IMG/VR virus record: IMGVR_UViG_3300021961_000065
Coordinates: 1 to 64,000 of that record
DNA: 64,000 nucleotides
Strand: one strand, 5' to 3'
From: a virus
The notes beneath the pieces are model-generated. The model had not been told where the DNA came from, made no database searches, and was given only the letters and a program-made list of their open reading frames with translations. Positions 1,129-62,213 of this stretch are shown piece by piece. A program made the position numbers and the translations under genes. The stretch's first letter is position 1, and each line of letters starts with the position of its first letter.

Positions 1129-1141
1129 TGAGGCATTACTA

Positions 1142-1867: not shown

Positions 1868-2369
1868 TGTTGGACAACCCAACACACATGCAACTAAGAA
1901 TGGTAGATCTTATCAATCAATGGAAGTAACATACAAGAATGATAGTGGTCAAGTTCAATCTAAGAAGTTAATGTCATTCAGTAATCCTGATGTGTTTAAA
2001 CAGGCTAAGGATTGGCAAAAAGGTGACACAGTAGATATTAATACACAGAAAGATGACAATGGTTATTGGCAGTGGATTAGTATTGGTGCTGATGCAATAG
2101 CACAAGCTAGTAGTAGTACAAGTAATACAAGTTCTAAAACAACAAGAGTTACAGGTAGTAACTACGAAACTAAAGAAGAACGAGCACAACGTCAAGTTAT
2201 GATCGTAAGACAATCCTCAATCTCATCTGCTATTTCAGCTTTAACTGCTGAGGGCAAACGTCCTTCAGTTGCAGATATTTTAGGTATGGCTAAAGAGTTC
2301 GAGAACTATGTAATGGATAACAAATCTGTTGATTCAGTAACAGACATGGAAGACGATATTCCTTTATAA
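1848..2369 (+). CDS. Putative single-stranded DNA-binding protein
   Basis: Beta-rich N-terminus, acidic tail EDDIPL; position after pol; ortholog 45893-46429. Confidence 0.6.
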   Translation: MQITVIDVGQPNTHATKNGRSYQSMEVTYKNDSGQVQSKKLMSFSNPDVFKQAKDWQKGDTVDINTQKDDNGYWQWISIGADAIAQASSSTSNTSSKTTRVTGSNYETKEERAQRQVMIVRQSSISSAISALTAEGKRPSVADILGMAKEFENYVMDNKSVDSVTDMEDDIPL

Positions 2370-3067
2370 TGAAAGCTTTAGTCGACATGGATTTAGTGTG
2401 CTTTCGTTGTGCAGCGAGTGCTGAGAACGATGATGTTGGTATAGCTATCTATCGTATGAATGAATTGTTTGATCAGATTATTGAGAAGACAGGTTCAACA
2501 GAATACGAAGCTTATCTAACAGGTTCTAGTAATTTTAGGAAGACTATCTATCCTGAATACAAAGCACATAGAAGAGCACCTAAACCTGTGCACTTAGAGG
2601 CTTGTCGTGATTATGCGATGCAGTCTCTGAATGCAGTAATTGCTCCTGATGGGTTAGAGGCAGATGATGCCTTGGGAATAAATCAAACAGATAATACGAT
2701 AATATGTTCCCTTGATAAAGATTTACTCCAGATACCAGGACGACATTTTTCCTGGGAGATCAGTGGCAAAGGATGGACAAGACCTGATACTTTTGTTGAA
2801 CAGACAGAGCTTGAGGGTCTTCGTCTATTTTATGAACAATGTCTTAAGGGTGATACATCTGATAACATTAAGGGTATAGAGAAGATTGGTGATAAAAAGG
2901 CAAAAACTCTCCTTAGTTCGTGTCCATCTGAACTCGATATGCTTCGTGTTGTCAGAAACCTTTATGGTAATGATGATGAGTTTCTTATGAACGCAGGATG
3001 TTTATGGATCCTACGGGAAGAGAACTCTTATTACAAGGAAAGATTTAATGCCCTTATTCAAAAGTAA
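2369..3067 (+). CDS. 5'-3' exonuclease (T7 gp6/FEN-like)
   Basis: YPEYKAHR, LEADD, SLDKDLLQIPG, GDTSDNIKGI motifs. Confidence 0.9.
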   Translation: MKALVDMDLVCFRCAASAENDDVGIAIYRMNELFDQIIEKTGSTEYEAYLTGSSNFRKTIYPEYKAHRRAPKPVHLEACRDYAMQSLNAVIAPDGLEADDALGINQTDNTIICSLDKDLLQIPGRHFSWEISGKGWTRPDTFVEQTELEGLRLFYEQCLKGDTSDNIKGIEKIGDKKAKTLLSSCPSELDMLRVVRNLYGNDDEFLMNAGCLWILREENSYYKERFNALIQK

Positions 3068-3434
3068 GTTTGAAAAGACAGTGTGGGATAAACTTAAACA
3101 AGTATTCTCAGCCTGTAAATATGAACCTAATAAATATTCTTATATCCAACCTGCAATAGAACGCACTTACATTCCTGACTTTAAACCTGGCACTGCTGAG
3201 ATTTACATCGAGGCTAAAGGTAAACTAGACTTAGAGACTAGAAAGAAGATGGTGTGGTTTAAACAGTGTAATCCAAAGACTCGTATCATATTCCTATTTA
3301 TGAATCCTGATGTTAAGATTCGTAAAGGAAGTAAGACGACTTACTGGATGTGGGCAGAAGACAACGGATTCGAATGGCTTGATGCCAGAAAGGATTGGAT
3401 AAGTGATTATAAAAAACTTTGTAAGAAACGCTGA
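3048..3434 (+). CDS. Endonuclease I-like Holliday junction resolvase
   Basis: FKSKFE, YIPDF, YIEAKG (PD-(D/E)xK), SKTTY..WAE. Confidence 0.85.
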   Translation: MPLFKSKFEKTVWDKLKQVFSACKYEPNKYSYIQPAIERTYIPDFKPGTAEIYIEAKGKLDLETRKKMVWFKQCNPKTRIIFLFMNPDVKIRKGSKTTYWMWAEDNGFEWLDARKDWISDYKKLCKKR

Positions 3435-3600
3435 TGGTAGCTGTTCTTTTAAATGTGAGGTAGATGACAAAGAAGCAGAAGCTTTAATTCAATTTGCTGT
3501 AATAAATCTTATTGATATGGGAATCATTAATGTTGAAGAACAAGAAGACATTGAGTCAGAGGTAAATAGTTATTTAAATTCTGGAGGTAAACTCTCATGA
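3403..3600 (+). CDS. Hypothetical protein
   Basis: Ortholog at 47478-47675. Confidence 0.65.
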   Translation: MIIKNFVRNADGSCSFKCEVDDKEAEALIQFAVINLIDMGIINVEEQEDIESEVNSYLNSGGKLS

Positions 3601-4382
3601 GGAAACACATGGTGATACCTGATTGTCAAGTAAAACCAGGACATTCAGTGCAATATTTAAGATGGATAGGTCAATACATTGTTGACAAACAACCTGATGT
3701 AATTGTATGTATAGGAGACTTTGCAGATATGCCTAGTCTTTCTTCGTATGATGTAGGTAAAAAGATGTTTGAAGGTAGAACATATAAATCAGACATCAAA
3801 GCAGTTCACAAAGCTATGGAAAGTTTATTAGCTCCTCTATGGAGATTACAAGAGAGACAACGTAAAGCTAAACGAAAGCTTTATCAACCTAGAATGGTTC
3901 TTACTTTAGGTAATCATGAAGATCGTATAGATCGAGCTATTAATAATGATCGTAAATTAGAAGATTTAATTAGCATAGGAGACTTAAATTATGATAAGTA
4001 TGGTTGGGAAGTGTATCCTTTTCTTGATGTGGTCGTTGTTGATGGTATTGCTTATAGTCACTATTTTGCAAGTGGTGTCATGGGAAGACCGATTACATCA
4101 GCTAGAACGCTCATTACTCGTAAGCACATGTCGTGTTTCGCAGGACATCAACAAGGTAGACAGATCGCTTACGGAAGCCGTGCAGATGGAAGAGAGATTA
4201 CTGCTATTATTGCAGGATCATGCTACGAACACGATGAGGACTATTTAAGTTCACAAACTAACCAACACTGGAGAGGGTTCTATATGCTCCATGAGGTTAA
4301 TGATGGTGCTTTTGATGAGATGGCAGTAAGCATTAATTATCTTCGTCAAAAGTATGGTAAAAAGCTTGACAAAAGCGTTTAA
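3597..4382 (+). CDS. Calcineurin-like metallophosphoesterase
   Basis: IPDCQ, GDFAD, LGNHE, GHQQ motifs. Confidence 0.85.
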   Translation: MRKHMVIPDCQVKPGHSVQYLRWIGQYIVDKQPDVIVCIGDFADMPSLSSYDVGKKMFEGRTYKSDIKAVHKAMESLLAPLWRLQERQRKAKRKLYQPRMVLTLGNHEDRIDRAINNDRKLEDLISIGDLNYDKYGWEVYPFLDVVVVDGIAYSHYFASGVMGRPITSARTLITRKHMSCFAGHQQGRQIAYGSRADGREITAIIAGSCYEHDEDYLSSQTNQHWRGFYMLHEVNDGAFDEMAVSINYLRQKYGKKLDKSV

Positions 4383-4394
4383 ACGAGGTATAAT
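4366..4394 (+). promoter_or_regulatory. Consensus sigma70 promoter
   Basis: TTGACA-N17-TATAAT, exact consensus, upstream of the RNR block. Confidence 0.75.
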
Positions 4395-4396
4395 AT

Positions 4397-4690
4397 ATGA
4401 TACATCCATTAGAAAAGATCTTTGAAGAAGCAGTAGAACAAGCATCAGATGGTAAGGGTGAAGAAAGACATGGTAATGGTAAATGTTTTCTTACTCAACC
4501 TTGGGTTAGCTTAGCAGATACACATGGTACAGGGTTCTTAACTGGACAAGCTCAGAAGAAGATCATGGAAGCAGTAAAGAATAAAGAAGACTCTAACTAT
4601 TTATGGTATAAAAGAGAGATGTTAGGAGCTATAAACTATTTAGCTATGGCATTGTTATATGAAGAAAGGATAGATGATGGTCGACACTAA
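4397..4690 (+). CDS. Conserved all-alpha hypothetical protein (possibly nucleotide-pyrophosphatase-like)
   Basis: GKGEERHG..QPW..GFLTGQAQKK..GAINYLAM conserved in 48433-48735; function uncertain. Confidence 0.6.
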   Translation: MIHPLEKIFEEAVEQASDGKGEERHGNGKCFLTQPWVSLADTHGTGFLTGQAQKKIMEAVKNKEDSNYLWYKREMLGAINYLAMALLYEERIDDGRH

Positions 4691-4817
4691 CCCACATACT
4701 GGAGAACGTATAGTCTCTAAACTTAGAAATAAAGATAAGTTTGATGAGAACTTTGATCGTATCTTTCGTAAAGACAAGAAAGAAGACAAAGAGAATGATA
4801 AGAAATCTAACGTTTGA
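4674..4817 (+). CDS. Small hypothetical protein (47 aa), copy A only
   Basis: MMVDTNPHTGERIVSK...FDENFDRIF; AAGGA SD; fills the gap between genes. Confidence 0.55.
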   Translation: MMVDTNPHTGERIVSKLRNKDKFDENFDRIFRKDKKEDKENDKKSNV

Positions 4818-16146: not shown

Positions 16147-18395
16147 TAAACATTAGAAGTTGCTGTGGCAGGGAACGCCCATCCTAGTAACTTCATATCT
16201 TTTCCTTCTTCTGAATTTATCTTTAAACTTATTGTTTTACCAGAACCTCTTAGCTTATTCTTTGTTATAATAACTCCATCACCATAGTCAAAAGGATCTC
16301 CTGATCCAGTAGGTATGTAGTTTCTTAATAAACGATAAGCTTGGAATTCTGATCCCCATTTACCACTATTAGCACTATTTGACCAATTCCATTGTGATTG
16401 TACTTTACATGATGATTGGTTATTAAGAATTAAATTAGATCCTGAAGCTATATAGCCATCTTCTGTACGAGTAAAATAGAAGAATACATAAGGTATTTGT
16501 TTGTCTCTCATAACATCACCAAACAACTCATAACCTGTTACAAGATAACTAGTATAGCTAACTCCTGTACCATTTTCTGTTACCCAATCTTTAAATGACA
16601 AGTTATTAAATTTAGATAGAGTAAAAGAAGTACCTACTATAGTTAAATAACTAAATTGTGAACTTCTATTTAATAACAAATCTTCTGTTGTTACTACAGT
16701 ATCAGAATTACTATCTATAACTGTATCTCCACTTGTAACTAATACAGATTGATCAAAACTAGATACGGCATAACCAGGTACTTCAATATAGTCAGCTACA
16801 TAAGGTGAATTAGTTGCAAGATCACTAAATGTATTTGTGTACCAAGCTTGGAGTGTAAGATCATATACAAGTTCCTTGGTATACTTATTTATATAATTAT
16901 TGTTCGTATAAGAAGTACTATCATTATATAACCAACGTACTCTATTTTCTTTCTCATCATAGAATCCTTTACAGTTGTTTTTACCAATGTCAGGAATACC
17001 TAAATATAAAGATTGAATTGTTGTAAGTGATAAAGATTCAGCTTTAAATCTTCCTGCTACAGAGTCTGTAGATAATAAATAAATACCTGCTTTAGACCAA
17101 TATACAAAGTTACCCCCTACATTAACTACAGATTTAGAATTTAAGATTCCATTTGGAGAAATCTTACTTGCTTGGAAAGAAGTAGCTACGAAACCATTAG
17201 TATCTCCATAAACTTCCCACACACCATTCTCTGCAAAGACAAGTAAAGATGATTGAGAAGAAATTATCTTAACAATACGAGTAGCTTCTGGTATCTGAAT
17301 AGTACCCCCATCAGAGTCAATAATGTCATTAATACCAGGATCTGTAGGATCAGCTTCTTGATGACATTTACCTAAGTCTGTATTAGATGTTACAACTTTA
17401 GTAAAGAATATATATCCTGAATAATTAGGAGATTTAGCATCACCATTTGTAACACTAGAATCAATACCTGAATAGAATATACGTTGAGCATAAGAAGCAA
17501 TAGTAGATATATTACCTGTTTCTGTATCTGAATTAAGTCCTGTAACATCTGTTCCTGCTTCTCTAGAAGAACCTCTATCAAAGGCATCTATAATGATTGA
17601 ACCTCTAGCTACTGTATAACGTGATTGTGAGTTCTTTTGTAATACTACTGGATCAAACTTTTCATAATTAGCATCGGCTGAATTACTAATCTTACCAAGA
17701 GTCCATGAATCAGAATTACTTGGATATTTACTTAGAGCAGTAAATGTTTCAGCTAAAGCATCTCCTCCTCCTTTAGTAACAATGTTTTCATTCCAACCTT
17801 GGTTACGAAGATTATACTTATGCTCATCTGATAGAGTAGCAGGTCTTTCATCATCTCCTAAACCATCTACTAATCCCCATATATCTCTAACTTTAATATC
17901 AATAGTAGATTGAGTTACTGTATCTGTTGTACTATTGTAAGAAAGAAGTACAGGTTTATCTATGTCTTTAGAAACAATAATTAACTGATTGTTAATAACA
18001 GCAGTTTCTATATTATTGTTAGATAGTCCTGTTATCGTAATAGAATTACCACTATTTAATAAATTAGCACTAGGAGCTGAAGTTAAGAGATCTATAAACC
18101 ATAGTTTATTTTTAACACGAATAACACCAATAGCTACAGATGAGTTACCACTAGGAGTATCCCATCTATGAAAAGATTGTTTACCTTGTTTAATATCATC
18201 TGCTGTTAAACCTGTAGAAGTCTTTGCATAGGCACCTTCATAGTCTAAACCTAGTCTACGAGAGCGTGAGCCATCTCTATTGAGTACAAAGTTTTGTTCG
18301 TCAATAGAAGCATTCTCTGGAAATGTAAGAGGACTCGCCTCTGTAATTAGACCCTTGACAAAGGATCTAAAGACTTTCTCGGTTTTAGCTGCCAA
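16146..18395 (-). CDS. Tail nozzle / tubular protein B
   Basis: 749-aa beta-rich, F.KGLITEASPL..NFVLNRDGSRSRRLG; position. Confidence 0.75.
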   Translation of the reverse strand: MAAKTEKVFRSFVKGLITEASPLTFPENASIDEQNFVLNRDGSRSRRLGLDYEGAYAKTSTGLTADDIKQGKQSFHRWDTPSGNSSVAIGVIRVKNKLWFIDLLTSAPSANLLNSGNSITITGLSNNNIETAVINNQLIIVSKDIDKPVLLSYNSTTDTVTQSTIDIKVRDIWGLVDGLGDDERPATLSDEHKYNLRNQGWNENIVTKGGGDALAETFTALSKYPSNSDSWTLGKISNSADANYEKFDPVVLQKNSQSRYTVARGSIIIDAFDRGSSREAGTDVTGLNSDTETGNISTIASYAQRIFYSGIDSSVTNGDAKSPNYSGYIFFTKVVTSNTDLGKCHQEADPTDPGINDIIDSDGGTIQIPEATRIVKIISSQSSLLVFAENGVWEVYGDTNGFVATSFQASKISPNGILNSKSVVNVGGNFVYWSKAGIYLLSTDSVAGRFKAESLSLTTIQSLYLGIPDIGKNNCKGFYDEKENRVRWLYNDSTSYTNNNYINKYTKELVYDLTLQAWYTNTFSDLATNSPYVADYIEVPGYAVSSFDQSVLVTSGDTVIDSNSDTVVTTEDLLLNRSSQFSYLTIVGTSFTLSKFNNLSFKDWVTENGTGVSYTSYLVTGYELFGDVMRDKQIPYVFFYFTRTEDGYIASGSNLILNNQSSCKVQSQWNWSNSANSGKWGSEFQAYRLLRNYIPTGSGDPFDYGDGVIITKNKLRGSGKTISLKINSEEGKDMKLLGWAFPATATSNV

Positions 18396-28911: not shown

Positions 28912-29481
28912 TTAAAATTCTATCCATCCAGTTATAATATACTTGTCTCCACCAATAGGTGGGTTTCCTCTGTGTGTATGTGTAAAGGCTGCAGGAAATA
29001 TTACTACATCTCCTTTACTTGGTTTGTATCTGTATTGTTGATAAAGAAATTCTGTTTCACCTGCTTCAAAGTCATCGTTAAGATAAGCAGTCCATACTAA
29101 AACTCTATTAGATGAATCTCTATCTGTAGCTTCAGCATGCCAAACATGATACCCTTGACCTGGTTTAGTTAATTGTATCTTCATTGTATATGATTTATGT
29201 TGAGCTAATGTGTGTACAATATTATATTTTTTAGCATACTCACTATAACAATCTGACCAAAATACTTTATTAAACTCATTTATTAATTCAGGAGTCGTAT
29301 GATGTAAAGGATAGCTAGGAAGAAAAGTAAATTGATCTTGTTTTTCTAATTTAGGAACTTTTTCTATACTTTGTCTATCTTGTGTAAATCCATTTGTATG
29401 TGCTATATTAAAATAGTTTATTACTTTATTACAGAACTCATCACTTAATACATTTTTATAAACTTCTATAAAATTATCCAT
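28912..29481 (-). CDS. 2OG-Fe(II) oxygenase
   Basis: GYHVWHAE, YLND, GETEF, FPAAFTHTHRGNPP. Confidence 0.85.
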   Translation of the reverse strand: MDNFIEVYKNVLSDEFCNKVINYFNIAHTNGFTQDRQSIEKVPKLEKQDQFTFLPSYPLHHTTPELINEFNKVFWSDCYSEYAKKYNIVHTLAQHKSYTMKIQLTKPGQGYHVWHAEATDRDSSNRVLVWTAYLNDDFEAGETEFLYQQYRYKPSKGDVVIFPAAFTHTHRGNPPIGGDKYIITGWIEF

Positions 29482-29496
29482 GTTATGTTTTATCCT

Positions 29497-29916
29497 TTAT
29501 ATTAATTCATTTACTATTAGTTGAGACCATTTGACTGCATCTTTTGTTTTAATTCTGTAGTCATAACTAATAGGATTACTAAATAAACTATTAGTATCTT
29601 TATATCTACTTTGATTTATTGTATCCATCCATATTACAATATCAGCATTAAATATATTTCTAATTTCTTCAGTAGGTGCTACAAAATCTGTTATAGTATG
29701 ACTATAATTATTACTTATAGTTTTTAATCTAGTTGCTTGTCTAAGCCTTCCTTCATAACTAAAATCCCAATCATTACTTAAAGCTCTAACCTCATCTGCA
29801 TTTATTCTAATAAAGTTTGTTAGTTTACCTAGTTCATTGGCTAATGTAGTTTTACCTGATCCTGGTAAACCCATTACTAATATCTTTAGTTTCTCCAAAA
29901 CTCCATTCCTTGACAT
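29497..29916 (-). CDS. Adenylylsulfate (APS) kinase-like P-loop kinase
   Basis: GLPGSGKTT, NADEVR, DFSYEGR, DFVAP..R. Confidence 0.7.
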   Translation of the reverse strand: MSRNGVLEKLKILVMGLPGSGKTTLANELGKLTNFIRINADEVRALSNDWDFSYEGRLRQATRLKTISNNYSHTITDFVAPTEEIRNIFNADIVIWMDTINQSRYKDTNSLFSNPISYDYRIKTKDAVKWSQLIVNELI

Positions 29917-30611
29917 TTATCTATAATATCTTGAGTAGGAGTTGTTGTTGATTTACTTAATGTAGATCGTAAAGAATGTAAGTTTGCATCACCATAAGCC
30001 TCTTTATCTAATTCTTTATATGTTGATTTTATATTATTAAATGTATGTTCATAATAATTTTCATTTAAAAACTTATATATCTTTTGTAAAGTTTCTTTAG
30101 GTTTATTAATTAAATTATTATACTCAACAATATGTATACAATCTTTATAATTATTAAAACCTATTTTTAAATTATCATAAGGATCTTGTAAAAGAATATC
30201 ATCTTTAGTTAATAAAAGATTACTATCTATATTAATTTTTGTATTTTTAATAGACATATAAATTTCAGATATATCTCTAACCATACATATTATCTTAGGT
30301 TTTATTTTAAAATAATGTAAAATATCAGTAACTTTACCTGTCCAAACTCTATTCTTATCAAATATAACTTCTTGTGTTATATCAGAATAATAATATTTAA
30401 TAAAGTCTCCTATATAACTTTCAACTTGAGTCACTTTAGGAAAAGCTTTAAATAAATCTAAATCATTAATTGTAGTAGCAATAGTTTCCATAATTTTAAC
30501 TACAGGTGAACTTGGTCCTGAATAAAAATTAGGATTTTGATTTAGTATAGCAGAAAGTAATGTACTTCCTGATCTTGGTAATCCTGATATAAAATATAGT
30601 TTTTTTGTCAC
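29886..30611 (-). CDS. Sulfotransferase
   Basis: ISGLPRSGSTLL (5'-PAPS loop), IICMVRD...S (3'-PB), VEYNNLI..P. Confidence 0.8.
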   Translation of the reverse strand: MTKKLYFISGLPRSGSTLLSAILNQNPNFYSGPSSPVVKIMETIATTINDLDLFKAFPKVTQVESYIGDFIKYYYSDITQEVIFDKNRVWTGKVTDILHYFKIKPKIICMVRDISEIYMSIKNTKINIDSNLLLTKDDILLQDPYDNLKIGFNNYKDCIHIVEYNNLINKPKETLQKIYKFLNENYYEHTFNNIKSTYKELDKEAYGDANLHSLRSTLSKSTTTPTQDIIDKCQGMEFWRN

Positions 30612-31708
30612 TTAAAGTAAGGACCTTCTAACCATGTTACACAACTATATCGTACTCCTTCTGTAACAGGTTCTACTCCATGTAACATATAACTAGGAAA
30701 AACTATTATAGTACCTTTTTCTTGAGGCGGGTAAAACTTTTTATGTGTAGTTTGAATATAAAACTTACCACCTTTGTAGTCATCATTAAGAAAAGCTAAT
30801 ACTGTTAGTTTTCTAGTTTCGTTACTATGTTTATGTATTGTATCTACATGAGGATAATAACGTCCATCTTGTTTATAAATTAAAAATTCAGATTGGTTAG
30901 TATGTGTTACATTATATTTCCACCAATAATTATTAGCATTTAAACCAGTAGCAGCTAATGTAGCACTAATACCTACATTAGGTTGTAATATAACTCTTTC
31001 AACATCTCTAATATTTTTATCTAAATTATTATCACCTATATAAGCAGGTTCTTTTTTAATACTATCTTGACTATAAGTATTAATAAGATTTTGACAAAAA
31101 CTATCTGTTATATGATTCTTAAATATAGCACAGTCAGTTAATCTATTATTTATAACTGTAGAAGGTTTTGGTATTCCTAAAGATTCTCTGCTATCATACT
31201 TTTGATCTGCATGAGGACCATCTGCATCTACATAGTGTAAGAATACTTGAGCCTGCCACTGTCCCTCTGTATATTTGTTTCTCCAATGTTCTAAATCCAT
31301 ACCACGATAAAGAACAGCATCTCCTACTTCCATATCTATTTTATTATGTTCCATATAAATAGACCAAGGTTTACCTTCAAATCCTAAAGTAAGAGTAGCT
31401 GATATTTCACAAGCAGGTCTATCTGTATGTTTTTTTAACTCATCATTAGGTTGATATAACCTAGCATAAGAATAAGTAGGATATAATTTTTTACCACTAG
31501 CTTTTTCAAAATAAGGTAATAAATCCTCAAGAAGCTCATCAAAGTTTTTTTGTCCATAGATACCATAAGATAATGGACATTGTTTATCTTTTGTAGCTTC
31601 ACCTTTATTTACTAAATCTTTTAATAAATTAGTATATCGTTTACAAGTATTTCTATTAATAAATTCTTTTAAATGAACGTATCCATTTTTATCGAAATCG
31701 TTGGTCAC
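30608..31708 (-). CDS. Tandem two-domain 2OG-Fe(II) oxygenase (prolyl-hydroxylase-like)
   Basis: Domain 1 HTD...HWR; domain 2 HVD...RKLT..FPSYMLHGVEPVTEGVRYS. Confidence 0.85.
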   Translation of the reverse strand: MTNDFDKNGYVHLKEFINRNTCKRYTNLLKDLVNKGEATKDKQCPLSYGIYGQKNFDELLEDLLPYFEKASGKKLYPTYSYARLYQPNDELKKHTDRPACEISATLTLGFEGKPWSIYMEHNKIDMEVGDAVLYRGMDLEHWRNKYTEGQWQAQVFLHYVDADGPHADQKYDSRESLGIPKPSTVINNRLTDCAIFKNHITDSFCQNLINTYSQDSIKKEPAYIGDNNLDKNIRDVERVILQPNVGISATLAATGLNANNYWWKYNVTHTNQSEFLIYKQDGRYYPHVDTIHKHSNETRKLTVLAFLNDDYKGGKFYIQTTHKKFYPPQEKGTIIVFPSYMLHGVEPVTEGVRYSCVTWLEGPYFK

Positions 31709-35623: not shown

Positions 35624-35694
35624 TAATTACTAATTACTGTTATTAGTTATTATAGTAATTAGTAATACTACATAACTACAGTAATTAGTAATTA
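35624..35694. repeat. 17-bp perfect inverted repeat with AGTAATT-type iterations
   Basis: TAATTACTAATTACTGT (35624-35640) / ACAGTAATTAGTAATTA (35678-35694); partial third copy at 35653. Confidence 0.7.
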
Positions 35695-41086: not shown

Positions 41087-41290
41087 ATGAAAGCAGTTCC
41101 TATGAGATGTCTAGCTTGCAATAAAGAGCTCTCAGACTTCGAAGCTACAAGAAAATCTACTCAAACAGGTGAATATATAGACTTATGTAATACGTGTTAT
41201 CGTACTATTAAAGATGTAATATTGCCTCAAGAACGTGAAGACTTACGAGATGTAATAGAAGATGATGATGAAGAAAATGGGGAGTACTAA
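41087..41290 (+). CDS. Zn-finger protein
   Basis: RCLACN.ELSDFEATRK....YIDLCNTC. Confidence 0.65.
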   Translation: MKAVPMRCLACNKELSDFEATRKSTQTGEYIDLCNTCYRTIKDVILPQEREDLRDVIEDDDEENGEY

Positions 41291-41300
41291 ACTCCCCTTT
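41273..41300. terminator. Bidirectional terminator between Zn-finger gene and pqqA
   Basis: GGGGAGT/ACTCCCC stem with T runs on both strands. Confidence 0.7.
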
Positions 41301-41304
41301 GATA

Positions 41305-41376
41305 TTACTTGTTACATACGTACATAGTAACTTCAAAACCAAATCTCATTTCTGTTGCTGATGGTTTAGTCCACAT
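41305..41376 (-). CDS. pqqA: Pyrroloquinoline quinone precursor peptide PqqA (23 aa)
   Basis: MWTKPSATEMRFGFEVTMYVCNK with W..P..R.GFEVTMY and the ExxxY core; SD GGAG 7 nt upstream. Confidence 0.92.
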   Translation of the reverse strand: MWTKPSATEMRFGFEVTMYVCNK

Positions 41377-41425
41377 AATGTTTCTCCATTTAGTTGATTA
41401 ATATACTTTTTTAGTATATAATAAT

Positions 41426-41431
41426 ATTATA
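41426..41431 (-). promoter_or_regulatory. Putative -10 box of pqqA
   Basis: TATAAT about 50 nt upstream of the ATG; -35 weak. Confidence 0.4.
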
Positions 41432-41487
41432 CTATAAATACGATATAGTGTAATCAGTACGATCTTGATAAGGAGCTAAGTTAAATC

Positions 41488-42186
41488 ATGAGTGCTTTTT
41501 TACAGCATTTACCCTGTCCTAATTGTGGTAGTAAAGACAATCTAGGTGAGTATGAAGATCATTTCTTCTGCTTTGGATGTCGTTATCACAAACATAAATC
41601 AGACACAAAATCATTAAGAAAACGAATAACTGTTAAACAAGAAACAGTGTATACTCCTGTCCAGGACATGGAGTTAACAGATGAACTACCTTCTGTTGCA
41701 AAACAATGGCTATTGAAGTATGGCATTACAATGGAAGATGCTAAAGAATATAATTTACAATGGAATCCTAATATGAATATGCTAATGTTATTAAAAACAA
41801 AATACTATTGGCAAGCAAGATTATTTGATAAAGCTAAACCAAAGTATTTATCTAAAGGAAAGAAACCTGTACAAATATATGGATATGGTACAGAACGAGT
41901 TACACTATGTGAAGACATAATTTCTGCTATCAAGTTAGCTCGAGTCTCTCCTGAGATGTGTGCTTCTCCTCTTCTAGGAAGCACAATCTCTTTCGAGGCC
42001 CTTCGCTTTTATAAGAAAAAATATAACAGAATCACAATATGGCTTGATCGAGATAAAGCTAAAGAAGCAATAAAGATAAGTAAATTGTTTCAACAATATG
42101 GAACTAAGAGTGATGTTATTATTACTCCTCTTGATCCAAAAGAATACAATAGAACGGAGCTTAGAGAATGGTTGAATTACAGATAA
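41488..42186 (+). CDS. DNA primase (Zn ribbon plus TOPRIM)
   Basis: CPNCGSKD..CFGC, LCEDIISA, WLDRD, DPKEY. Confidence 0.85.
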   Translation: MSAFLQHLPCPNCGSKDNLGEYEDHFFCFGCRYHKHKSDTKSLRKRITVKQETVYTPVQDMELTDELPSVAKQWLLKYGITMEDAKEYNLQWNPNMNMLMLLKTKYYWQARLFDKAKPKYLSKGKKPVQIYGYGTERVTLCEDIISAIKLARVSPEMCASPLLGSTISFEALRFYKKKYNRITIWLDRDKAKEAIKISKLFQQYGTKSDVIITPLDPKEYNRTELREWLNYR

Positions 42187-43415
42187 TAAGATTATTCTGT
42201 GTAAATAAAGATGAGTATAGTCGTTACTATAAATACGTTGATACGACTTACATGAAAAACAATTATCCTTTGTTACATAAATTGTTTCAAATGGTATTTA
42301 GTTTCTATGATAAATATGATAAAGATAACATTACACCTAATGAACTCTTTACAATGTATCAAGCTAACTATATTACAGATGAATCAGAACAAAAAGAAAT
42401 AAAAGAACTTATTGATACCATCTTTGATTCTGAAGAAAACACAGCTATACGAGATTTATTACAGACACATAAAAGACGTGCTCTTGCAGGTAACCTTGCT
42501 AAAGTAGCTTTAGATGTAGAAGAAGGTAAAGTAGAAGCTGAAAAACTACAGGAACTTTTTAGTGACTTTGAATTACAAGCAGTAAATGAACAAGAAATTA
42601 ATGGCTGCACAGATGATTTATCAGACTTATTACATCAACAATTTGATGAAGTGGGGCTTCGTTGGAGACTTAACTTCTTAAATAAATCATTAGGTAGTCT
42701 ACGTCAAGGAGACTTTGGCTTTATCTTTGCTAGACCTGAAACAGGTAAAACTACTTTCTTAGCTTCAGAAGTATCTAATATGATAAAATATACAGACAAA
42801 GAAATACATTGGTTTCATAACGAAGAGGGTGCACGTAAAGTGCAAACTCGAGTCTATCAAGCAGTGCTTGGAGTTACAACACAACAACTAAAGAAACACG
42901 AAGAACGTTGTAAACAAAAGTATTATGAAGAAACATATAAAGATGGACAGAAAAGAATCTTTATACATGATGTTAATGAATCTTCACACATCAAAGTAAT
43001 TGAAGGAATCTTAAAACAAAAGAACCCCGGGCTTATAATACTTGATCAAATTGATAAGATAAAAGGATTTAAAGCAGATCGTAATGATCTTGAATTAAAA
43101 GTATTATATCAATGGGCTAGGGAACTTTGTAAAAAGTATGCTCCAGTTATTGCCGTCTCCCAAGCTAGTGGTGAGGCAGAGGGTGTACCATTTCTAACAA
43201 TGGATATGGTAGACTCATCCAAGACAGCCAAACAAGGAGAGGCTGATTGGATTCTAGGTATAGGTAAGGATAAAGATAATACCTCTCGTATAAGGTATCT
43301 AAATATCACTAAAAATAAGCTCCTTGGTGATAGCGATTCCTTACCTGCACTTAGACATGGTAGTGCTAGAGTACTAATTAAACCTGAGGTAGCTCAATAT
43401 GAAGACATCGTTTAG
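42168..43415 (+). CDS. DnaB-like replicative helicase
   Basis: ARPETGKTT, HNEE, IILDQ, VSQA, EADWILG, KNKL. Confidence 0.9.
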   Translation: MVELQIIRLFCVNKDEYSRYYKYVDTTYMKNNYPLLHKLFQMVFSFYDKYDKDNITPNELFTMYQANYITDESEQKEIKELIDTIFDSEENTAIRDLLQTHKRRALAGNLAKVALDVEEGKVEAEKLQELFSDFELQAVNEQEINGCTDDLSDLLHQQFDEVGLRWRLNFLNKSLGSLRQGDFGFIFARPETGKTTFLASEVSNMIKYTDKEIHWFHNEEGARKVQTRVYQAVLGVTTQQLKKHEERCKQKYYEETYKDGQKRIFIHDVNESSHIKVIEGILKQKNPGLIILDQIDKIKGFKADRNDLELKVLYQWARELCKKYAPVIAVSQASGEAEGVPFLTMDMVDSSKTAKQGEADWILGIGKDKDNTSRIRYLNITKNKLLGDSDSLPALRHGSARVLIKPEVAQYEDIV

Positions 43416-43560: not shown

Positions 43561-43789
43561 TTATGATGCAACAAATGATATAACTAATCCTACTATGAAA
43601 AAGATATATTCATATATGCAAAGAGGTAAAACATATACTCGTAAAGATATAGCAAAAGACCTGTCCCTACCTGTTCCTACAGTGACAGCTAGGGTTTCAG
43701 ATCTTCTGATGAAACATTATATAACAGAGACCCCTACTGTATGGGATGAAAAATCTAAAAGATATATAGGAGGCTTCCAAAGATTATGA
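43529..43789 (+). CDS. Winged HTH DNA-binding protein
   Basis: TRKDIAKDLSLPVPTVTARVSDL. Confidence 0.7.
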   Translation: MRRLMITIHRDYDATNDITNPTMKKIYSYMQRGKTYTRKDIAKDLSLPVPTVTARVSDLLMKHYITETPTVWDEKSKRYIGGFQRL

Positions 43790-44940
43790 ATGTATTAACA
43801 ATAGATGTAGAAACTACCATATCAAATAAAGGTAATCCTTTTGATACAACTAATAAATTAGTATATGTAGGATGTAAAGATAACGAGCAACCTACTAAAG
43901 TATTTAGTATTGAATACAATCAAGAACCTTATAAAGATAAACTTAATAAGATTCAAGCTATGATAAATGATGTTGATTGGTTAGTAGGTTTTAATATTAA
44001 ATTTGATTTATCTTGGTTAAAAAGATATGGAATTAAATTTGATCACAAAAGAATATGGGATTGTCAGTTAGCTCACTTTATTATGACAGGACAAGAAAAA
44101 CCATATCCTAGTTTAAATGGAGTCTGTGAACATCACGGACTTGAACAAAAGATAGATATTATTAAAGAGCAGTATTGGTCTAATGGCATTGACACTCCAA
44201 ATATACCAGAAGAATTATTACAAGACTATCTTAAAAAAGATGTAGACTTAACAAGAGAAGTTTATAAAAAACAAATGTATGTATTATATAAAGATACTAA
44301 TCAAGCTAATCTTATACAATTACATTTTAGAGATTTAGCAGTGCTTCAAGAAATGGAATACAATGGGATGTTATATGATCAACAAAGGAGTAAAATACTT
44401 GGTGATGAATTGGATGAACAAATTGGGAAACTGGATAGACGACTGTACGATTTACATGGATTGGATTCTTTTAACCCTTCTAGCGTGGATCACCTTAATG
44501 CTTTCCTTTATGGTGGGAGGCTTAGCTTCCGTCGTAAAGTACCTGATGGTGTTTACAAGACGGGGGCTCGTAAAGGTGAACCAAAGGAAAAATGGGAAAC
44601 GTATGAAGTAGAATTACCACAACGTTGTAAACCTATTGCAGGATCTGAACTAAAAAAAGATGGATTATATTCAGTAGATGATAGTACAATTAAAAGATTA
44701 AAAGGAGCAAAAGATATTCGTGATTTAATACTAACAAGAGCTACATTACAGAAACGACTTACAGCATACTATAGAGGCTTAGATGAACTTATCACAGAAA
44801 ATAATTGGAAACAAAACAAACTACATGGAGTCCTCAACCAATGTGTTGCTAGAACAGGACGACTCTCAAGTAGTAAACCCAACTTACAAAACTTTGATTC
44901 AGAAATTAAAGGCTTGCTTTACAGTAGATATGAGTCATAG
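43786..44940 (+). CDS. DNA polymerase A, N-terminal half, copy B
   Basis: ExoI IDVET, ExoII GFNIKFDL, ExoIII YLKKDV, ARTGRLSSSKPNLQN. Confidence 0.9.
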   Translation: MNVLTIDVETTISNKGNPFDTTNKLVYVGCKDNEQPTKVFSIEYNQEPYKDKLNKIQAMINDVDWLVGFNIKFDLSWLKRYGIKFDHKRIWDCQLAHFIMTGQEKPYPSLNGVCEHHGLEQKIDIIKEQYWSNGIDTPNIPEELLQDYLKKDVDLTREVYKKQMYVLYKDTNQANLIQLHFRDLAVLQEMEYNGMLYDQQRSKILGDELDEQIGKLDRRLYDLHGLDSFNPSSVDHLNAFLYGGRLSFRRKVPDGVYKTGARKGEPKEKWETYEVELPQRCKPIAGSELKKDGLYSVDDSTIKRLKGAKDIRDLILTRATLQKRLTAYYRGLDELITENNWKQNKLHGVLNQCVARTGRLSSSKPNLQNFDSEIKGLLYSRYES

Positions 44941-45187
44941 TAAAAAAGTAACAGTAGCTATTACAGGCATTGATGATTATTTTCGTAATAATTGTCCTCG
45001 CTCTGAAAGATTAAAAGATCTTTATGAACATATAGAACGCAAAGGATTAAATGTAGCCTGGGCAGAATATGTATCTAAAGATATAGAAGATCTTATTATG
45101 ATAGAAGGACCTGAATTTTTACTTAAACATATGTCTGTTAGTGCTAAAGATAAACTAATAAAGTACATGAAAAAGAGGTATCTTTAA
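44930..45187 (+). CDS. Small protein between the polymerase halves, copy B (85 aa)
   Basis: Start re-called at MSHSKK; homologous to 934-1128. Confidence 0.7.
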   Translation: MSHSKKVTVAITGIDDYFRNNCPRSERLKDLYEHIERKGLNVAWAEYVSKDIEDLIMIEGPEFLLKHMSVSAKDKLIKYMKKRYL

Positions 45188-45912
45188 TGTTATTACAAGC
45201 AGATGCAAAACAACTAGAGTGGGTAGGTGCTGCTTATTTATCTCAAGATCCTGTAGCTATTAATGAAATATGGGGATCAGTAGATATGCACAGTGATAAT
45301 CAAAAACGATTTGGTCTACCTAGTAGATTGATTGCTAAGACTTTCGTGTTTAGATTAATCTATGGAGGCAGTGCTTATAGTTATGCACATGATCCTAACT
45401 TTATGTCAATAGGTAGTGAAAAGTATTGGCAAACTATTATAGATAACTTTTATGATAAATATAAAAGATTAGGTGAATGGCATAAAGAAATCTATGAAGA
45501 AGCAGTTCGTGAACGTAGATTAGTAATGCCAACAAATAGAGTCTATAACTTTGAATCTGAAGTTAAAGGCAATAAAGTATATTATCCACGTACTAAGATA
45601 TTAAACTATCCTGTACAAGGATTAGGCGCAGATCTTATGGCGATTGCTCGTGTGTCGTTAATGACTAAACTACGTGAGATGAAAGACATAGTTATGGTTA
45701 ATACAGTACATGATTCAATAATACTTGATTTTAATTCAAAAGTATGGGATAATATACATATAGTCAATTTAGTTGACAAATGTTTCAATGAAGTTCCAGA
45801 TAACTTTCACAAATTATTTGGGAAAGAGTTTAACTTACCTATGAGAGTCGAGTGTCAAGTAGGACCCACATGGGGATCAATGGAGATAATAAATGCAGAT
45901 AAACGTAATTGA
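45187..45912 (+). CDS. DNA polymerase A, C-terminal half, copy B
   Basis: Motifs A/B/C as in 1142-1867. Confidence 0.92.
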   Translation: MLLQADAKQLEWVGAAYLSQDPVAINEIWGSVDMHSDNQKRFGLPSRLIAKTFVFRLIYGGSAYSYAHDPNFMSIGSEKYWQTIIDNFYDKYKRLGEWHKEIYEEAVRERRLVMPTNRVYNFESEVKGNKVYYPRTKILNYPVQGLGADLMAIARVSLMTKLREMKDIVMVNTVHDSIILDFNSKVWDNIHIVNLVDKCFNEVPDNFHKLFGKEFNLPMRVECQVGPTWGSMEIINADKRN

Positions 45913-46429
45913 TGTAGGACAACCAACCACTCATGCTAGTGCTAATGGTAGATCATATGAAATGATTGAAGTTGCATACAAGAATGAGAACGGGCAAATT
46001 CAACAAAAGAAGTTAATGTCATTCAAAAACCCTGACGTTTACAAACAAGCTTTAACATGGGAGAAAGGTGCAACAGTCCATATACAAGCTGAGAAAAACG
46101 AAAAAGGTTATTGGGAATGGATTGGCTTAGGAGATGTACCAGTAGCTAGTGCATCACCATCATCACAACCTAGTAAATCTAATAGCAATACTAGAGTTAC
46201 TGGTTCTAACTATGAAACCAAAGAAGAACGTGCAGCACGACAAGTAATGATTGTTCGGCAGTCATCTATCTCTTCAGCAGTCAGTGCTTTAACAGCAAGT
46301 AATAATGTTCCTTCAAGCAACGACATTCTATCTCTTGCAAAAGAGTTTGAAGATTATGTTATGGGTAATACTACTGTTAACAAAGCTGATGGTGGAATAG
46401 ATAACTTTGAGGATGATGTTCCTTTTTAG
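45893..46429 (+). CDS. Putative SSB, copy B
   Basis: Ends EDDVPF. Confidence 0.6.
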   Translation: MQINVIDVGQPTTHASANGRSYEMIEVAYKNENGQIQQKKLMSFKNPDVYKQALTWEKGATVHIQAEKNEKGYWEWIGLGDVPVASASPSSQPSKSNSNTRVTGSNYETKEERAARQVMIVRQSSISSAVSALTASNNVPSSNDILSLAKEFEDYVMGNTTVNKADGGIDNFEDDVPF

Positions 46430-46446
46430 GGACATCTTCTTTCATT

Positions 46447-47142
46447 ATGTTAGCTCTAATTGATATGGATATAGTATGCTATCGTTGTGCTGCTTCAGCA
46501 GAAAACAATGATCTAGGAATAGCTATATACAGACAGAATGAATTACTTGATCAGATATTAGAGATGACAGGAGCTACAGCATATAAAGCTTACCTATCAG
46601 GTCAAAAGAACTTTCGTAAACAAATCTACCCAGAATATAAAGCTAATAGAAAGCAACCTAAACCTATACATCTGGATAACTGTAGAGACTATGCGATGCA
46701 GGAACAAAATGCAGAACTCGCACCTATAGGATTAGAAGCAGATGATGCTCTAGGAATAAATCAGACTAAAGACACAGTAATTTGTAGTTTAGATAAGGAT
46801 CTATTACAGATCCCTGGACAACATTACTCATGGGAAATTAGTGGTAAAGGATGGAAAAAACCACACATATTCAGAGAAATTACTGAAATAGAAGGACTTA
46901 AACTATTCTATGAACAATGCCTTAAAGGAGATCGAACAGACAATATACGAGGCATAGAAAAGATTGGAGATAAAAAAGCAAACTTAATATTAAAACCATA
47001 CACAACAGAACTAGAAATGTTTAATGTAGTCAGAGATATGTATGGTAATGATGAAGAGTTTTTAATGAACGCTAATTGTTTATGGATATTACGAGATGAA
47101 AACGAAACGTTTACAGAACGCTTTGCCAAACTTCAAAAGTAA
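46447..47142 (+). CDS. 5'-3' exonuclease, copy B
   Basis: Same motifs as 2369-3067. Confidence 0.9.
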   Translation: MLALIDMDIVCYRCAASAENNDLGIAIYRQNELLDQILEMTGATAYKAYLSGQKNFRKQIYPEYKANRKQPKPIHLDNCRDYAMQEQNAELAPIGLEADDALGINQTKDTVICSLDKDLLQIPGQHYSWEISGKGWKKPHIFREITEIEGLKLFYEQCLKGDRTDNIRGIEKIGDKKANLILKPYTTELEMFNVVRDMYGNDEEFLMNANCLWILRDENETFTERFAKLQK

Positions 47143-47506
47143 ATTTGAACGTAGTATTTGGGAACAGTTAATAAAAGAATACAAGACTTGTCAGTATGAA
47201 TGTGACTCGTACAAATACGAACAACCTGTTATTATAAGAACCTACACTCCTGACTTTAAGACAGGTAAACATAAAGTATACTTAGAAACAAAAGGTAAAT
47301 TAGATTTAGAGACTCGTAAGAAAATGATATGGTTTAAAGAATGTAATCCTAATGTACGGATTATATTTTTATTTCAAAATGCTGATGTTAAACTACGTAA
47401 AGGTAGTAAAACATCTTATAGTGAATGGGCAACAAAGAATAACTTTGAATGGTTAGATGCTAGAAAGGATTGGATAAGTGCATATAAAGAAATGCTCAAA
47501 GAATAA
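47096..47506 (+). CDS. Endonuclease I-like, copy B (true start probably TTG near 47123)
   Basis: FKSKFE, YTPDF, ETKG. Confidence 0.85.
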   Translation: MKTKRLQNALPNFKSKFERSIWEQLIKEYKTCQYECDSYKYEQPVIIRTYTPDFKTGKHKVYLETKGKLDLETRKKMIWFKECNPNVRIIFLFQNADVKLRKGSKTSYSEWATKNNFEWLDARKDWISAYKEMLKE

Positions 47507-47675
47507 AGATGGTTCATTTAAATTTGAAGTTGAAGTGAACAAAGATGAAGCTGCCTATTTGTTTAATTATGCTCTTAATGATTTAATAAAAGCAGGGTTT
47601 ATGCACGTAGATTTAATTACTGAAGCTGAATATGAGCTTAATTTATTTAGAGAAGATGGAGGAGATCTATCATGA
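47478..47675 (+). CDS. Hypothetical protein, copy B
   Basis: Ortholog of 3403-3600. Confidence 0.65.
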   Translation: MHIKKCSKNKDGSFKFEVEVNKDEAAYLFNYALNDLIKAGFMHVDLITEAEYELNLFREDGGDLS

Positions 47676-48433
47676 AACATTTAGTGATACCTGATTGTCA
47701 AGTTAAACCTAAAGTAGATATATCTTATTTATATTGTATTGGTAACTATATAGTGGCTAAACAACCTGATGTTATTGTATGTATAGGTGACTTTGCTGAT
47801 ATGCCTAGCTTATCAAGTTATGATACAAATAAGAAATCATTTGAAGGACGTACATACAAAGCAGATGTTAAATCTGTTCACACAGGAATGGAACTACTTT
47901 TAGGTCCTTTATGGGAGTATCAAGATAGACAACGTAAAGATAAAAAGAAGATGTACAGACCTCGTATGATATTGACGTTAGGTAATCATGAAGATAGAAT
48001 AGATAGAGCGATTAACACAGATCGTAAACTTGAAGATTTAATTAGTATAGGAGATCTAAACTATGAACACTATGGTTGGGAGGTGTATCCTTTTCTTGAC
48101 GTGGTTGTGGTCGATGGTGTTGCTTACTCACATTATTTTGCAAGTGGTGTCATGGGAAGACCAGTTACATCAGCACAAGCTCTCATTAATAAAAAGCACA
48201 TGTCATGCTTTGCAGGACACCAACAAGGACGACAAATTGCCTATGCAAGAAAAGCAGATGGCACTGAAATTACTTGTATTATAGCAGGTAGTTGTTATCT
48301 ACATAATGAAGACTATCTATCTTCACAAGGTAATAATCACTGGAGAGGGATCTATATGTTACATGAAGTAGATAATGGGGCTTTCGATGAGATGGCAGTT
48401 AGTTTAAGATATTTAATGAAGGAGTATAAGTAA
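47672..48433 (+). CDS. Metallophosphoesterase, copy B
   Basis: GDFAD, GNHE, GHQQ. Confidence 0.85.
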   Translation: MKHLVIPDCQVKPKVDISYLYCIGNYIVAKQPDVIVCIGDFADMPSLSSYDTNKKSFEGRTYKADVKSVHTGMELLLGPLWEYQDRQRKDKKKMYRPRMILTLGNHEDRIDRAINTDRKLEDLISIGDLNYEHYGWEVYPFLDVVVVDGVAYSHYFASGVMGRPVTSAQALINKKHMSCFAGHQQGRQIAYARKADGTEITCIIAGSCYLHNEDYLSSQGNNHWRGIYMLHEVDNGAFDEMAVSLRYLMKEYK

Positions 48434-48735
48434 TGCACCCATTAGAAACAATATATAAAAAAGCAGTAGAACAAGTTACAAGTGGAAAAGGTAATGAAAG
48501 ACATGGTGATGGTGATGACTTTATGTTACAGCCTTGGGTTAACATTACTAGACTACATGGACGTGGTTTTCTAACAGGACAGGCACAGAAGAAACTAGAA
48601 GAGGCAGTCCGTAATCGAGTCGGTCATAACTACGACTGGTATGAGCGTGAGTTACTTGGTGCTATCAATTACTTAGCTATGGCATTACTTGCTGAATATG
48701 AGATTGGTAAAAGTACTACGGAGGAACTACATTGA
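48433..48735 (+). CDS. Conserved hypothetical protein, copy B
   Basis: Ortholog of 4397-4690. Confidence 0.65.
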   Translation: MHPLETIYKKAVEQVTSGKGNERHGDGDDFMLQPWVNITRLHGRGFLTGQAQKKLEEAVRNRVGHNYDWYERELLGAINYLAMALLAEYEIGKSTTEELH

Positions 48736-59923: not shown

Positions 59924-62213
59924 GATCTAATGTTACTACAGGTGTTGCCCATCCTAATAAAACCATATCTTTACCTGCTTCTGATTCTATCTTTAAACTT
60001 AAGGTTTTACCTGATCCTCTTATTTTATTCTTTGTTACAATAACTTCTTCACCATAATCAAAAGTATCTGTAGGTCCACTTGGTATATAATTTCTTAATA
60101 AACGATAAGCTTGAAATTGTGTACCCCATTTACCACTGTTAGCACTATTTGCCCAATTCCATTGAGCTTGCACTAAACATGATGATTGTTTATCTAATTC
60201 TAAATTACCACCTACTTCTGTATAACCATCTTCTGTTCGTTTTAAATAAAAGAAAATGTAGTTAGCTTGTTTACGTCTCATAATATCATTATATAATTCA
60301 TAGCCAGTTACAAGATAACTTGAATAATCAGCCCCTACATTATCTACTGTATACCAGTCTTTAAATTGTAAACTACTAAATTTAGAAATTGTAAATTGAG
60401 TTCCTTTTATAGTAAGATAACTAAATTGTGAACTTCTATTTAAAGGAGTATCAATAGTTATAACTACAGGATTACTACTACTATCAATAACTGTATTTGT
60501 ATTTACAACAACATTTGTATCTTGTTCTGCAATTACATAACCTGGTATTTGAATATAATCAGCAATATAAGGAGAACCTGTTGCTAAGTCTGCAAATGTA
60601 TTTGTATACCAAGCTTGTAATGTTAAATCATAAATTAATTCTTTATTGTATTTATTTATGTAATTAGTCGTATTATAAACAACATCATTATTATCATTGT
60701 ATAACCAACGTACTCTATTTTCTTTTTCATCATAATAACCTTTACAAAAGTCTTTACCTAATTCAGGAATATCTAAATATAAAGATTGAATTGTTGTTAA
60801 TGATAAAGAAACAGCTTTAAAACGTCCTCCTGCAGCATCAGGAGTAAGCATATAAATACCTGCATTAGACCAATAAAAGAAAGCTCCATTAACAAAAACA
60901 ATAGAGTCAGCATTAAGTACACCATTATCAGATATTTTACCTAACTGAAAAGAGGTTGCATTAAAACCACCTGTATCACCATAAAGTTCCCATACACCAT
61001 TTTCTGCAAAGATTAATAAAGAAGCTTGAGACGGCACAATTTTAATAATCTTGCTACAATCAGGTATTTGTACAGTACCTCCATCAGAAGCTACTACATC
61101 ATTTAAAGCTGAATCTGTTGGATCAGTTTCTTGATGACATTTACCTAATTGGTCATCTGACGTTACTACTTGAGTAAAGAAAATATAACCTGAATAATTA
61201 GGTGATTTAGCATCAGGATCAGTTACATTAGAAACAATACCTGAATAAAAAAGTCGTTGAGCATAAGCAGCAATAGTAGTTAATGATCCTGTTTCTTGAT
61301 CTGTATTAAGACCTGTTACATCTGTATTAGTTTCTCTACTAGAGCCTCTATTAAAAGCATCTATAATAATACGACCTTTAGCTACTTGAAAACGAGAAGT
61401 AGCATTTTTTTCAAGAATAGTAGGATCATACTTTTCATAGTTAGCATCTGTAGCATCACTATTTTTACCTAATACAAAAGCATCAGCATTACTAGGATAA
61501 CCTCCTAAAGCTCCTCGTGTAGCATTAAGAGCATCAGTTGTAGCTACTGTAGGAGTTGCAGGATCATTATCATCATCCCATTGAGTACTAACTGTAACAA
61601 TGTTTTCTGCCCAACCTTGATTTCTAAGATTATATTTATGTTCAATAGATAATGCTGCAGGTCTTTCATCTACATCTAAACCATCCTCAAGTCCCCATAT
61701 ATCACGTACTTTAATATCAATCGTAGTTTGAGTAACAGTATCTGTAGTAGAATTATAAGATAATAAAACAGGTTTTGATAAATCTTCAGATACTAAAATA
61801 CATTTATTATTAATAACAGCAGTTTGTAATTTAGCATTACTTAAATCTGTTACTGTTAAAGCACTACCACCATTTAATAAATTAGCACTAGGATTAGCTG
61901 TAAGTAAATCTACAAACCATAGTTTACCTTCTATTCTAATAATACCAATAGATACAGAACTAGACCCTCCTGGTGTTGTCCAACGATGAAAAGACTGTTT
62001 ACTTTCTTTAATAGTATCTACTGTTAAACCTGTACTATTTAATTGATACAAGTTTTCATAGTCAATACCTAGTCGTCTTGAACGAGAGCCATCTCGATTC
62101 AGAACAAAGTTATTTTCATCAAGAGAAGCATTTTCAGGAAAAGTAAGAGGACTTGCCTCAGTAATTAAACCTTTTGTAAAAGATCTAAATGCCTTTTCAA
62201 TAGCTTTAGCCAC
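59916..62213 (-). CDS. Tail nozzle / tubular protein B, copy B
   Basis: Ortholog of 16146-18395. Confidence 0.75.
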   Translation of the reverse strand: MAKAIEKAFRSFTKGLITEASPLTFPENASLDENNFVLNRDGSRSRRLGIDYENLYQLNSTGLTVDTIKESKQSFHRWTTPGGSSSVSIGIIRIEGKLWFVDLLTANPSANLLNGGSALTVTDLSNAKLQTAVINNKCILVSEDLSKPVLLSYNSTTDTVTQTTIDIKVRDIWGLEDGLDVDERPAALSIEHKYNLRNQGWAENIVTVSTQWDDDNDPATPTVATTDALNATRGALGGYPSNADAFVLGKNSDATDANYEKYDPTILEKNATSRFQVAKGRIIIDAFNRGSSRETNTDVTGLNTDQETGSLTTIAAYAQRLFYSGIVSNVTDPDAKSPNYSGYIFFTQVVTSDDQLGKCHQETDPTDSALNDVVASDGGTVQIPDCSKIIKIVPSQASLLIFAENGVWELYGDTGGFNATSFQLGKISDNGVLNADSIVFVNGAFFYWSNAGIYMLTPDAAGGRFKAVSLSLTTIQSLYLDIPELGKDFCKGYYDEKENRVRWLYNDNNDVVYNTTNYINKYNKELIYDLTLQAWYTNTFADLATGSPYIADYIQIPGYVIAEQDTNVVVNTNTVIDSSSNPVVITIDTPLNRSSQFSYLTIKGTQFTISKFSSLQFKDWYTVDNVGADYSSYLVTGYELYNDIMRRKQANYIFFYLKRTEDGYTEVGGNLELDKQSSCLVQAQWNWANSANSGKWGTQFQAYRLLRNYIPSGPTDTFDYGEEVIVTKNKIRGSGKTLSLKIESEAGKDMVLLGWATPVVTLDRA

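Follow-up and report, generated by a model that had tools for sequence, protein, structure and literature searches.

A stand-alone pqqA gene in a MEP401-type phage and its putative role in supplying PQQ precursor to infected methylotrophs

A gene for PqqA, the peptide precursor of PQQ, has been identified as a short antisense unit among the replication genes of a MEP401-type phage, and pqqA recurs in unrelated phages of methylotrophs. The phage peptide would be converted to PQQ by the host, sustaining PQQ-dependent methanol oxidation in infection; from comparative evidence, the probability of this reading is placed at roughly 0.7. The phage is represented by an IMG/VR virus record of 74,813 bp, within which a stretch of 64,000 nucleotides (the window, to which coordinates refer) was analysed.

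Identity, neighbours and host of the phage pqqA

The gene is a 72-nt open reading frame on the minus strand (41305–41376, stop included) encoding 23 amino acids, exactly the peptide quoted in an earlier sequence-only reading of the window, with Glu15 and Tyr19 held in the E-x-x-x-Y arrangement of an EVTMY motif. PQQ is built from the Glu and Tyr of this Glu-x-x-x-Tyr pair of PqqA in the PqqA/PqqD/PqqE system. The peptide scores 43.3 bits (E 3e-11) against the Pfam PqqA family (PF08042; gathering score 21.1) and 44.7 bits (E 8e-12) against the NCBIfam equivalog TIGR02107 (cut-off 20), more than twice both family cut-offs and far beyond chance, so that the profile comparison proposed in the sequence-only reading bears out its assignment of the locus (41273–41455) to PqqA. 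A six-frame scan of the entire 74,813-bp record returned a single PqqA match (42.2 bits, E 9.5e-12). Size and motif are those of PqqA (∼20–40 amino acids with a conserved Glu-x-x-x-Tyr), and the peptide lies one to two residues from chromosomal PqqA of the Methylophilaceae, the variant positions being Ser6 and, in some comparisons, Cys21; recognition of this leader by PqqD is predicted. Adjacency to pqqBCDE, common in bacteria and not a defining feature of pqqA, is lacking in the record, and a PDB sequence search with the 23 residues gave no match.

The gene sits, as the same reading had described, antisense among replication genes, between a plus-strand gene for a 67-residue CxxC...CxxC (zinc-ribbon) protein (41087–41290), homologous to MEP402 gp10 with 58.6% identity to MEP402 4567–4740, and a plus-strand DNA primase gene (41488–42186), followed by a plus-strand gene for a DnaB-like helicase (42168–43415; DnaB_C); the homologues of the latter two are annotated primase and helicase in MEP402. 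ArdC, a split family-A DNA polymerase (PolA) and a class II ribonucleotide reductase are also encoded in the vicinity, and the opposite arm of the record carries terminase, portal (labelled head-tail adaptor in PHROGs), major capsid and tail genes. Searches of the 74.8-kb record for PqqB, PqqC, PqqD and PqqE came back empty, in agreement with the stand-alone status already noted for the gene, as did a search for a PQQ-dependent alcohol dehydrogenase. The gene thus has the genomic features of an auxiliary metabolic gene: close homology to a metabolic gene of the host, and phage genes on both sides within a bona fide phage genome.

The Shine–Dalgarno sequence, TATAAT box and terminator previously ascribed to the gene are all present. 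A GGAG motif lies 7 nt upstream of the pqqA ATG (41384–41387, minus strand), and a Shine–Dalgarno-like motif precedes viral pqqA in 119/121 copies among the matches listed. Further upstream, a putative promoter of sigma-70 type (ATTACA-17-TATAAT, 10/12 matches; 41426–41454, minus strand) stands back to back with a promoter-like site ahead of the primase (41394–41422, plus strand). Taken alone, the TATAAT box is weak evidence, because promoter-like matches in this AT-rich stretch occur at chance level as a class (14 observed vs 12.7 expected); the box is unchanged in 5–6 relatives at 65–97% DNA identity, among which the spacer is otherwise variable (alignment A1). The gene ends in a G+C-rich hairpin of the intrinsic terminator type (41279–41297), with 7 bp, five of them G-C pairs, running from 41297 to 41279 and followed by the T-rich tail ATTTTCTT; its folding energy is −13.3 kcal/mol (z = −4.95), a value equalled by 0/200 shuffles, and it is also found in the close relatives L254 and L256. 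On the plus strand the same hairpin is likewise scored as a terminator and overlaps the stop of the convergent zinc-ribbon gene.

Closest among cultured phages are MEP401 and MEP402, two Methylophilales phages that infect OM43 strain FZCC0133; gene order is shared with them, and amino acid identity reaches 52–53% for the helicase and 76.8% for the major capsid protein; relatives are found at the protein level, a megablast search of 8 kb around pqqA against GenBank phages having returned no match. A degenerate DNA pattern, scanned against GTDB with a single genome for each species, gave at least 120 cellular loci. Among the matches listed, peptides identical at 21–22/23 positions belong to Methylotenera, Methylophilus, Methylovorus and Methylobacillus, all Methylophilaceae, or to genomes with the broader labels Nitrosomonadales, Betaproteobacteria and Pseudomonadota, with two such loci in a metagenome-assembled genome labelled Acidovorax caeni; identity falls to at most 17/23 in Methylophaga and to 14–16/23 in Pseudomonas and Marinobacter. 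Kinship to MEP401/402 (helicase 53%, capsid 77%) together with the closest cellular PqqA supports an OM43-clade Methylophilaceae host, as had been predicted from the letters of the window.

Two 1.2-Mb Methylophilaceae genomes (∼33% GC at the pqqA locus) encode PqqC and XoxF-type enzymes, and each holds 3 pqqA copies, within a range of 2–5 per Methylophilaceae genome. Dispersed pqqA copies numbering 3–12 have been reported in this family against a single pqqBCDE (PMC4109929), an imbalance which suggests that precursor dosage matters in these hosts.

The record itself spans ∼1.7 genome lengths and consists of two related MEP401-type genomes joined head to tail (window 1–35505 and 35600–64000, the second continuing to the record end at 74813), which are only 66–79% identical in DNA (∼70%), with matching segments at 1127–4653 and 45172–48686, and at 16177–18371 and 59947–62189. 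The join probably reflects an assembler circling a permuted genome and switching strain, and the CheckV designation of the record as 100% complete is misleading since two genomes are held in it. The sister copy (copy A) begins at record base 1 inside the polymerase gene, so that its equivalent pqqA locus is cut off; the split at window 43786–44940, 44783–45187 and 45187–45912 recurs in it at 2–937 and 1142–1867. Elsewhere in the window, an AT-rich stretch (28912–31708; 27% GC) behind the tail-fibre genes holds a 366-residue protein with PHROGs matches to 2OG-Fe(II) oxygenase and 'ferrochelatase' families, and an imperfect inverted repeat of ∼70 nt (35624–35694; 80% identity) lies within a gene-poor region of ∼950 nt separating the minus and plus arms.

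Presence, absence and spread of the pqqA cassette

Antisense pqqA was found just upstream of the primase gene in 7/7 close primase relatives from independent metagenomes, comprising five at 83–99% amino acid identity plus L007 and L091. The upstream region is covered in 52/80 helicase relatives, with pqqA at the same site in 26, slightly further upstream in 2 and missing from the locus in 24. A whole-record search of these 24 and of seven further helicase relatives included eight records at least 90% complete, in six of which pqqA lies elsewhere in the genome and in two of which it is absent; these two essentially complete genomes with a MEP401-type helicase (G077 and G083) indicate that pqqA is dispensable. 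The first (the record of L329) is 35,773 bp long with direct terminal repeats and the second (the record of L336) 41,871 bp, and both offer natural pqqA-minus comparators. The gp10 homologue and the primase gene are separated by 24–45 nt without pqqA and by 197–283 nt with it, with clean insertion edges. Presence and absence between the same two genes, together with these edges, mark the unit as a moron-like cassette of ∼200 nt, with its own terminator and a putative promoter. In MEP401/402 the gene stands not ahead of the primase, as here, but at the head of the minus arm next to gp69, in MEP402 as the first gene of the structural arm operon directly before gp69. A tblastn search with the genes flanking host pqqA against the at least 120 viral loci described below recovered no shared host flank, which argues against host contamination.

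The wider distribution was explored by tblastn with the peptide against a GenBank phage collection of 50,697 records, a viral database search proposed in the sequence-only reading; besides Methylophilaceae phages, the only matches were a single viral genome from spring water and weak ones to a pair of contigs labelled Acinetobacter phage MD-2021a. The Methylophilaceae phages comprise Venkman, MEP301, MEP401, MEP402, P19250A and four Melnitz records, and this set, as returned by tblastn, is what is meant here by all cultured methylophages; MEP431–434, HIM624-A, MG-MTP1 and RSA-MFP1 possibly lie outside the collection. The PqqA peptides of these cultured phages (23–24 amino acids) pass TIGR02107 at 34–40 bits, and the gene is likewise antisense within the recombination/replication module of both Venkman and MEP301. 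PqqA is annotated in none of the cultured methylophage records returned, as anticipated by the earlier suggestion that gene callers would miss so small a gene; at 23 codons, pqqA falls under the usual gene-calling thresholds. The publications on Venkman, MEP301, MEP401/402 and Melnitz make no mention of a phage pqq gene. An intact 24-residue PqqA frame in Melnitz-1 (L253; MZ577095.1 74848–74943; TIGR02107 34 bits) lies beside a tRNA-Leu gene, opposite in strand to the annotated 'hypothetical protein' Melnitz1EXVC043M_151, which is probably a mis-called frame masking pqqA.

A scan of IMG/VR with a degenerate DNA pattern, in which several residues were fixed, identified at least 120 contigs with pqqA, the loci having 31–47% GC and the peptides being nearly identical. 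By flanking genes, the loci listed comprise 34 Venkman-like, 10 like the present phage or MEP402, 8 MEP301-like, 7 P19250A-like and 4 Melnitz-like, with 57 resembling none of these. PqqC was absent from the 50 longest pqqA-bearing viral records among the matches listed, the same search having found it in 5/5 Methylophilaceae genomes used as positive control. Four loci at 40–47% GC (L003, L009, L012 and L015) encode PqqA of a gammaproteobacterial type with the core IRLGFEVTMYFKN (TIGR02107 42–45 bits), a minority of viral PqqA among the IMG/VR matches listed; with the Acinetobacter phage matches, these peptides raise the prospect that phage pqqA may reach hosts beyond the Methylophilaceae.

Selection on viral pqqA and the putative role of its peptide

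The 121 viral copies among the matches listed comprise 108 distinct DNA sequences and 45 peptides, with codon-position entropies of 0.93 at the third, 0.34 at the first and 0.24 at the second position. Mean pS is 0.63 and mean pN 0.11 in the same copies, giving a pN/pS of 0.17, a value pushed down somewhat by the several residues held constant in the search pattern; as judged from this ratio, with its partial bias, viral pqqA is under purifying selection, as befits an auxiliary metabolic gene. The combination of Ser6 and Cys21 occurs only in viral contigs within the sampled matches listed.

Methanol dehydrogenase of the Methylophilaceae is non-functional without PQQ. In the reading favoured here, the carrier is a lytic, MEP401-type (Zobellviridae-like) phage of OM43-clade Methylophilaceae, whose self-contained, moron-like cassette would be transcribed by the host RNA polymerase. 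The 23-residue peptide would be recognised by host PqqD/PqqE, as expected from its near identity to host PqqA, and host PqqB/C/(F) would finish its conversion to PQQ. Each PQQ made uses up one peptide, the enzymes being catalytic and persistent, so that the phage need bring only the consumable substrate. The resulting PQQ supply would keep the host XoxF-type methanol dehydrogenase and its energy yield going as host gene expression declines, with a presumed benefit to phage fitness. Against precursor supply, PQQ already in the holo-enzyme is stable, which may leave little need for new PQQ within a short lytic cycle, and the two essentially complete relatives without pqqA manage in its absence.

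Conversion to PQQ could alternatively bring a benefit other than methanol-derived energy, by serving other quinoproteins, by redox or antioxidant protection, or by replacing PQQ leaked from the periplasm. The PF08042 and TIGR02107 scores, the selection and the invariance of Glu and Tyr would fit such a role equally well, and the gammaproteobacterial-type viral peptides, beside the weak Acinetobacter phage matches, suggest a trait not tied solely to methanol oxidation. This alternative is nevertheless considered unlikely, given the overwhelming link of phage pqqA to phages of obligate methylotrophs, in which the main PQQ enzyme is methanol dehydrogenase, and the carriage of PqqA alongside a viral methanol dehydrogenase in Lake Baikal phages (PMC7678222).

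A decoy role, raised in the sequence-only reading as its own alternative, would have the peptide occupy PqqD/PqqE without yielding PQQ, thereby shutting the pathway or redirecting radical-SAM capacity, and the stand-alone gene in a record free of processing enzymes is compatible with it. Loss of the reactive residues or divergence from the host peptide would then be expected, but IMG/VR scans with four patterns for substituted Glu15 or Tyr19 codons in an otherwise kept frame gave 0 matches, against at least 120 canonical ones. This constancy in targeted scans argues against a decoy, the commonest viral peptide among the matches listed is identical to a chromosomal Methylophilaceae PqqA, and the hosts amplify their own pqqA copy number; a competitive inhibitor is accordingly very improbable.

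Absence of any peptide function, the locus being host DNA that was recently captured or wrongly assembled, the remnant of an attachment site, or a unit retained solely for its bidirectional terminator and divergent promoters, could draw on the composite nature of the record and on a hairpin that terminates both strands at the boundary of early and replication operons, but deserves very little credence: mis-assembly, a concern voiced when the gene was first noticed, was rejected on finding the identical arrangement in independent metagenome assemblies at 65–97% nucleotide identity, an attachment-site remnant was rejected because synonymous sites diverge freely (pS 0.63) while frame and ribosome site are always complete, and a purely structural element is likewise at odds with a conserved peptide, with retention of start, ribosome site and stop in 119–121/121 copies among the matches listed, and with the different position of the MEP402 gene, where it heads an operon.

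Precedents and significance

A PqqA and a methanol dehydrogenase were both reported from T4-like Lake Baikal phages of the Methylophilaceae by Coutinho et al. (2020; Microbiome 8:163, PMC7678222). Phage-borne PqqA was thus already known, and the novelty implied when the present gene was first noticed was overstated. As here, the Lake Baikal phage population VP_266 encodes a PQQ precursor peptide that was read as an auxiliary metabolic gene aiding methanol oxidation, and the predicted host family is the same (PMC7678222). Those phages are large, freshwater and T4-like, with further genes for methanol dehydrogenase and for radical-SAM/SAM-cycle functions (PMC7678222), whereas the present phage is a marine podovirus type of ∼44 kb with pqqA as its sole PQQ-related gene, housed in an antisense cassette of 200 nt. 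Orphan chromosomal pqqA genes of the Methylophilaceae are likewise stand-alone, multicopy and away from pqqBCDE, with 21–22/23 identity among the matches listed; unlike them, the present gene is phage-borne between replication genes, with a putative promoter and a terminator of its own. The intact, unannotated PqqA frames of MEP401, MEP402, Venkman, MEP301, P19250A and Melnitz offer a closer parallel, and what is new here is the recognition of pqqA in the MEP401-type lineage, where it had gone unannotated.

Cyanophage psbA, encoding D1, is a rapidly consumed part of the host energy-harvesting machinery that has been gained repeatedly by unrelated phages. The likeness of pqqA to psbA would be one of logic only, a phage bringing a consumable part and the gene being acquired repeatedly within one host guild; PqqA differs in being a sacrificial cofactor substrate rather than a subunit, is unrelated in sequence and structure, and has a putative benefit. 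In its strongest form, the comparison would make pqqA a convergently acquired, near-universal hallmark of methylophages, present in every cultured lineage as a mobile cassette of 200 nt ('the psbA of methylophages'), a proposition to which we give even odds; no statement of such near-universality was found in the literature. If true, methylotrophic energy metabolism would be kinetically limited in infected cells by the supply of PqqA peptide, and the gene would be an overlooked, simple marker pointing to methylotroph hosts for uncultured viral contigs.

In coastal seas and lakes, OM43 and its relatives among the Methylophilaceae rank as major methanol consumers. Cultured host–phage pairs, namely MEP401/402 on FZCC0133, and Venkman and Melnitz on H5P1, make the proposed role testable, and the presence of pqqA is a strong cue for predicting the hosts of uncultured viral contigs. 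A phage gene supplying only the consumable precursor would, if so confirmed, reveal a limiting step of cofactor supply in the infected methylotroph.
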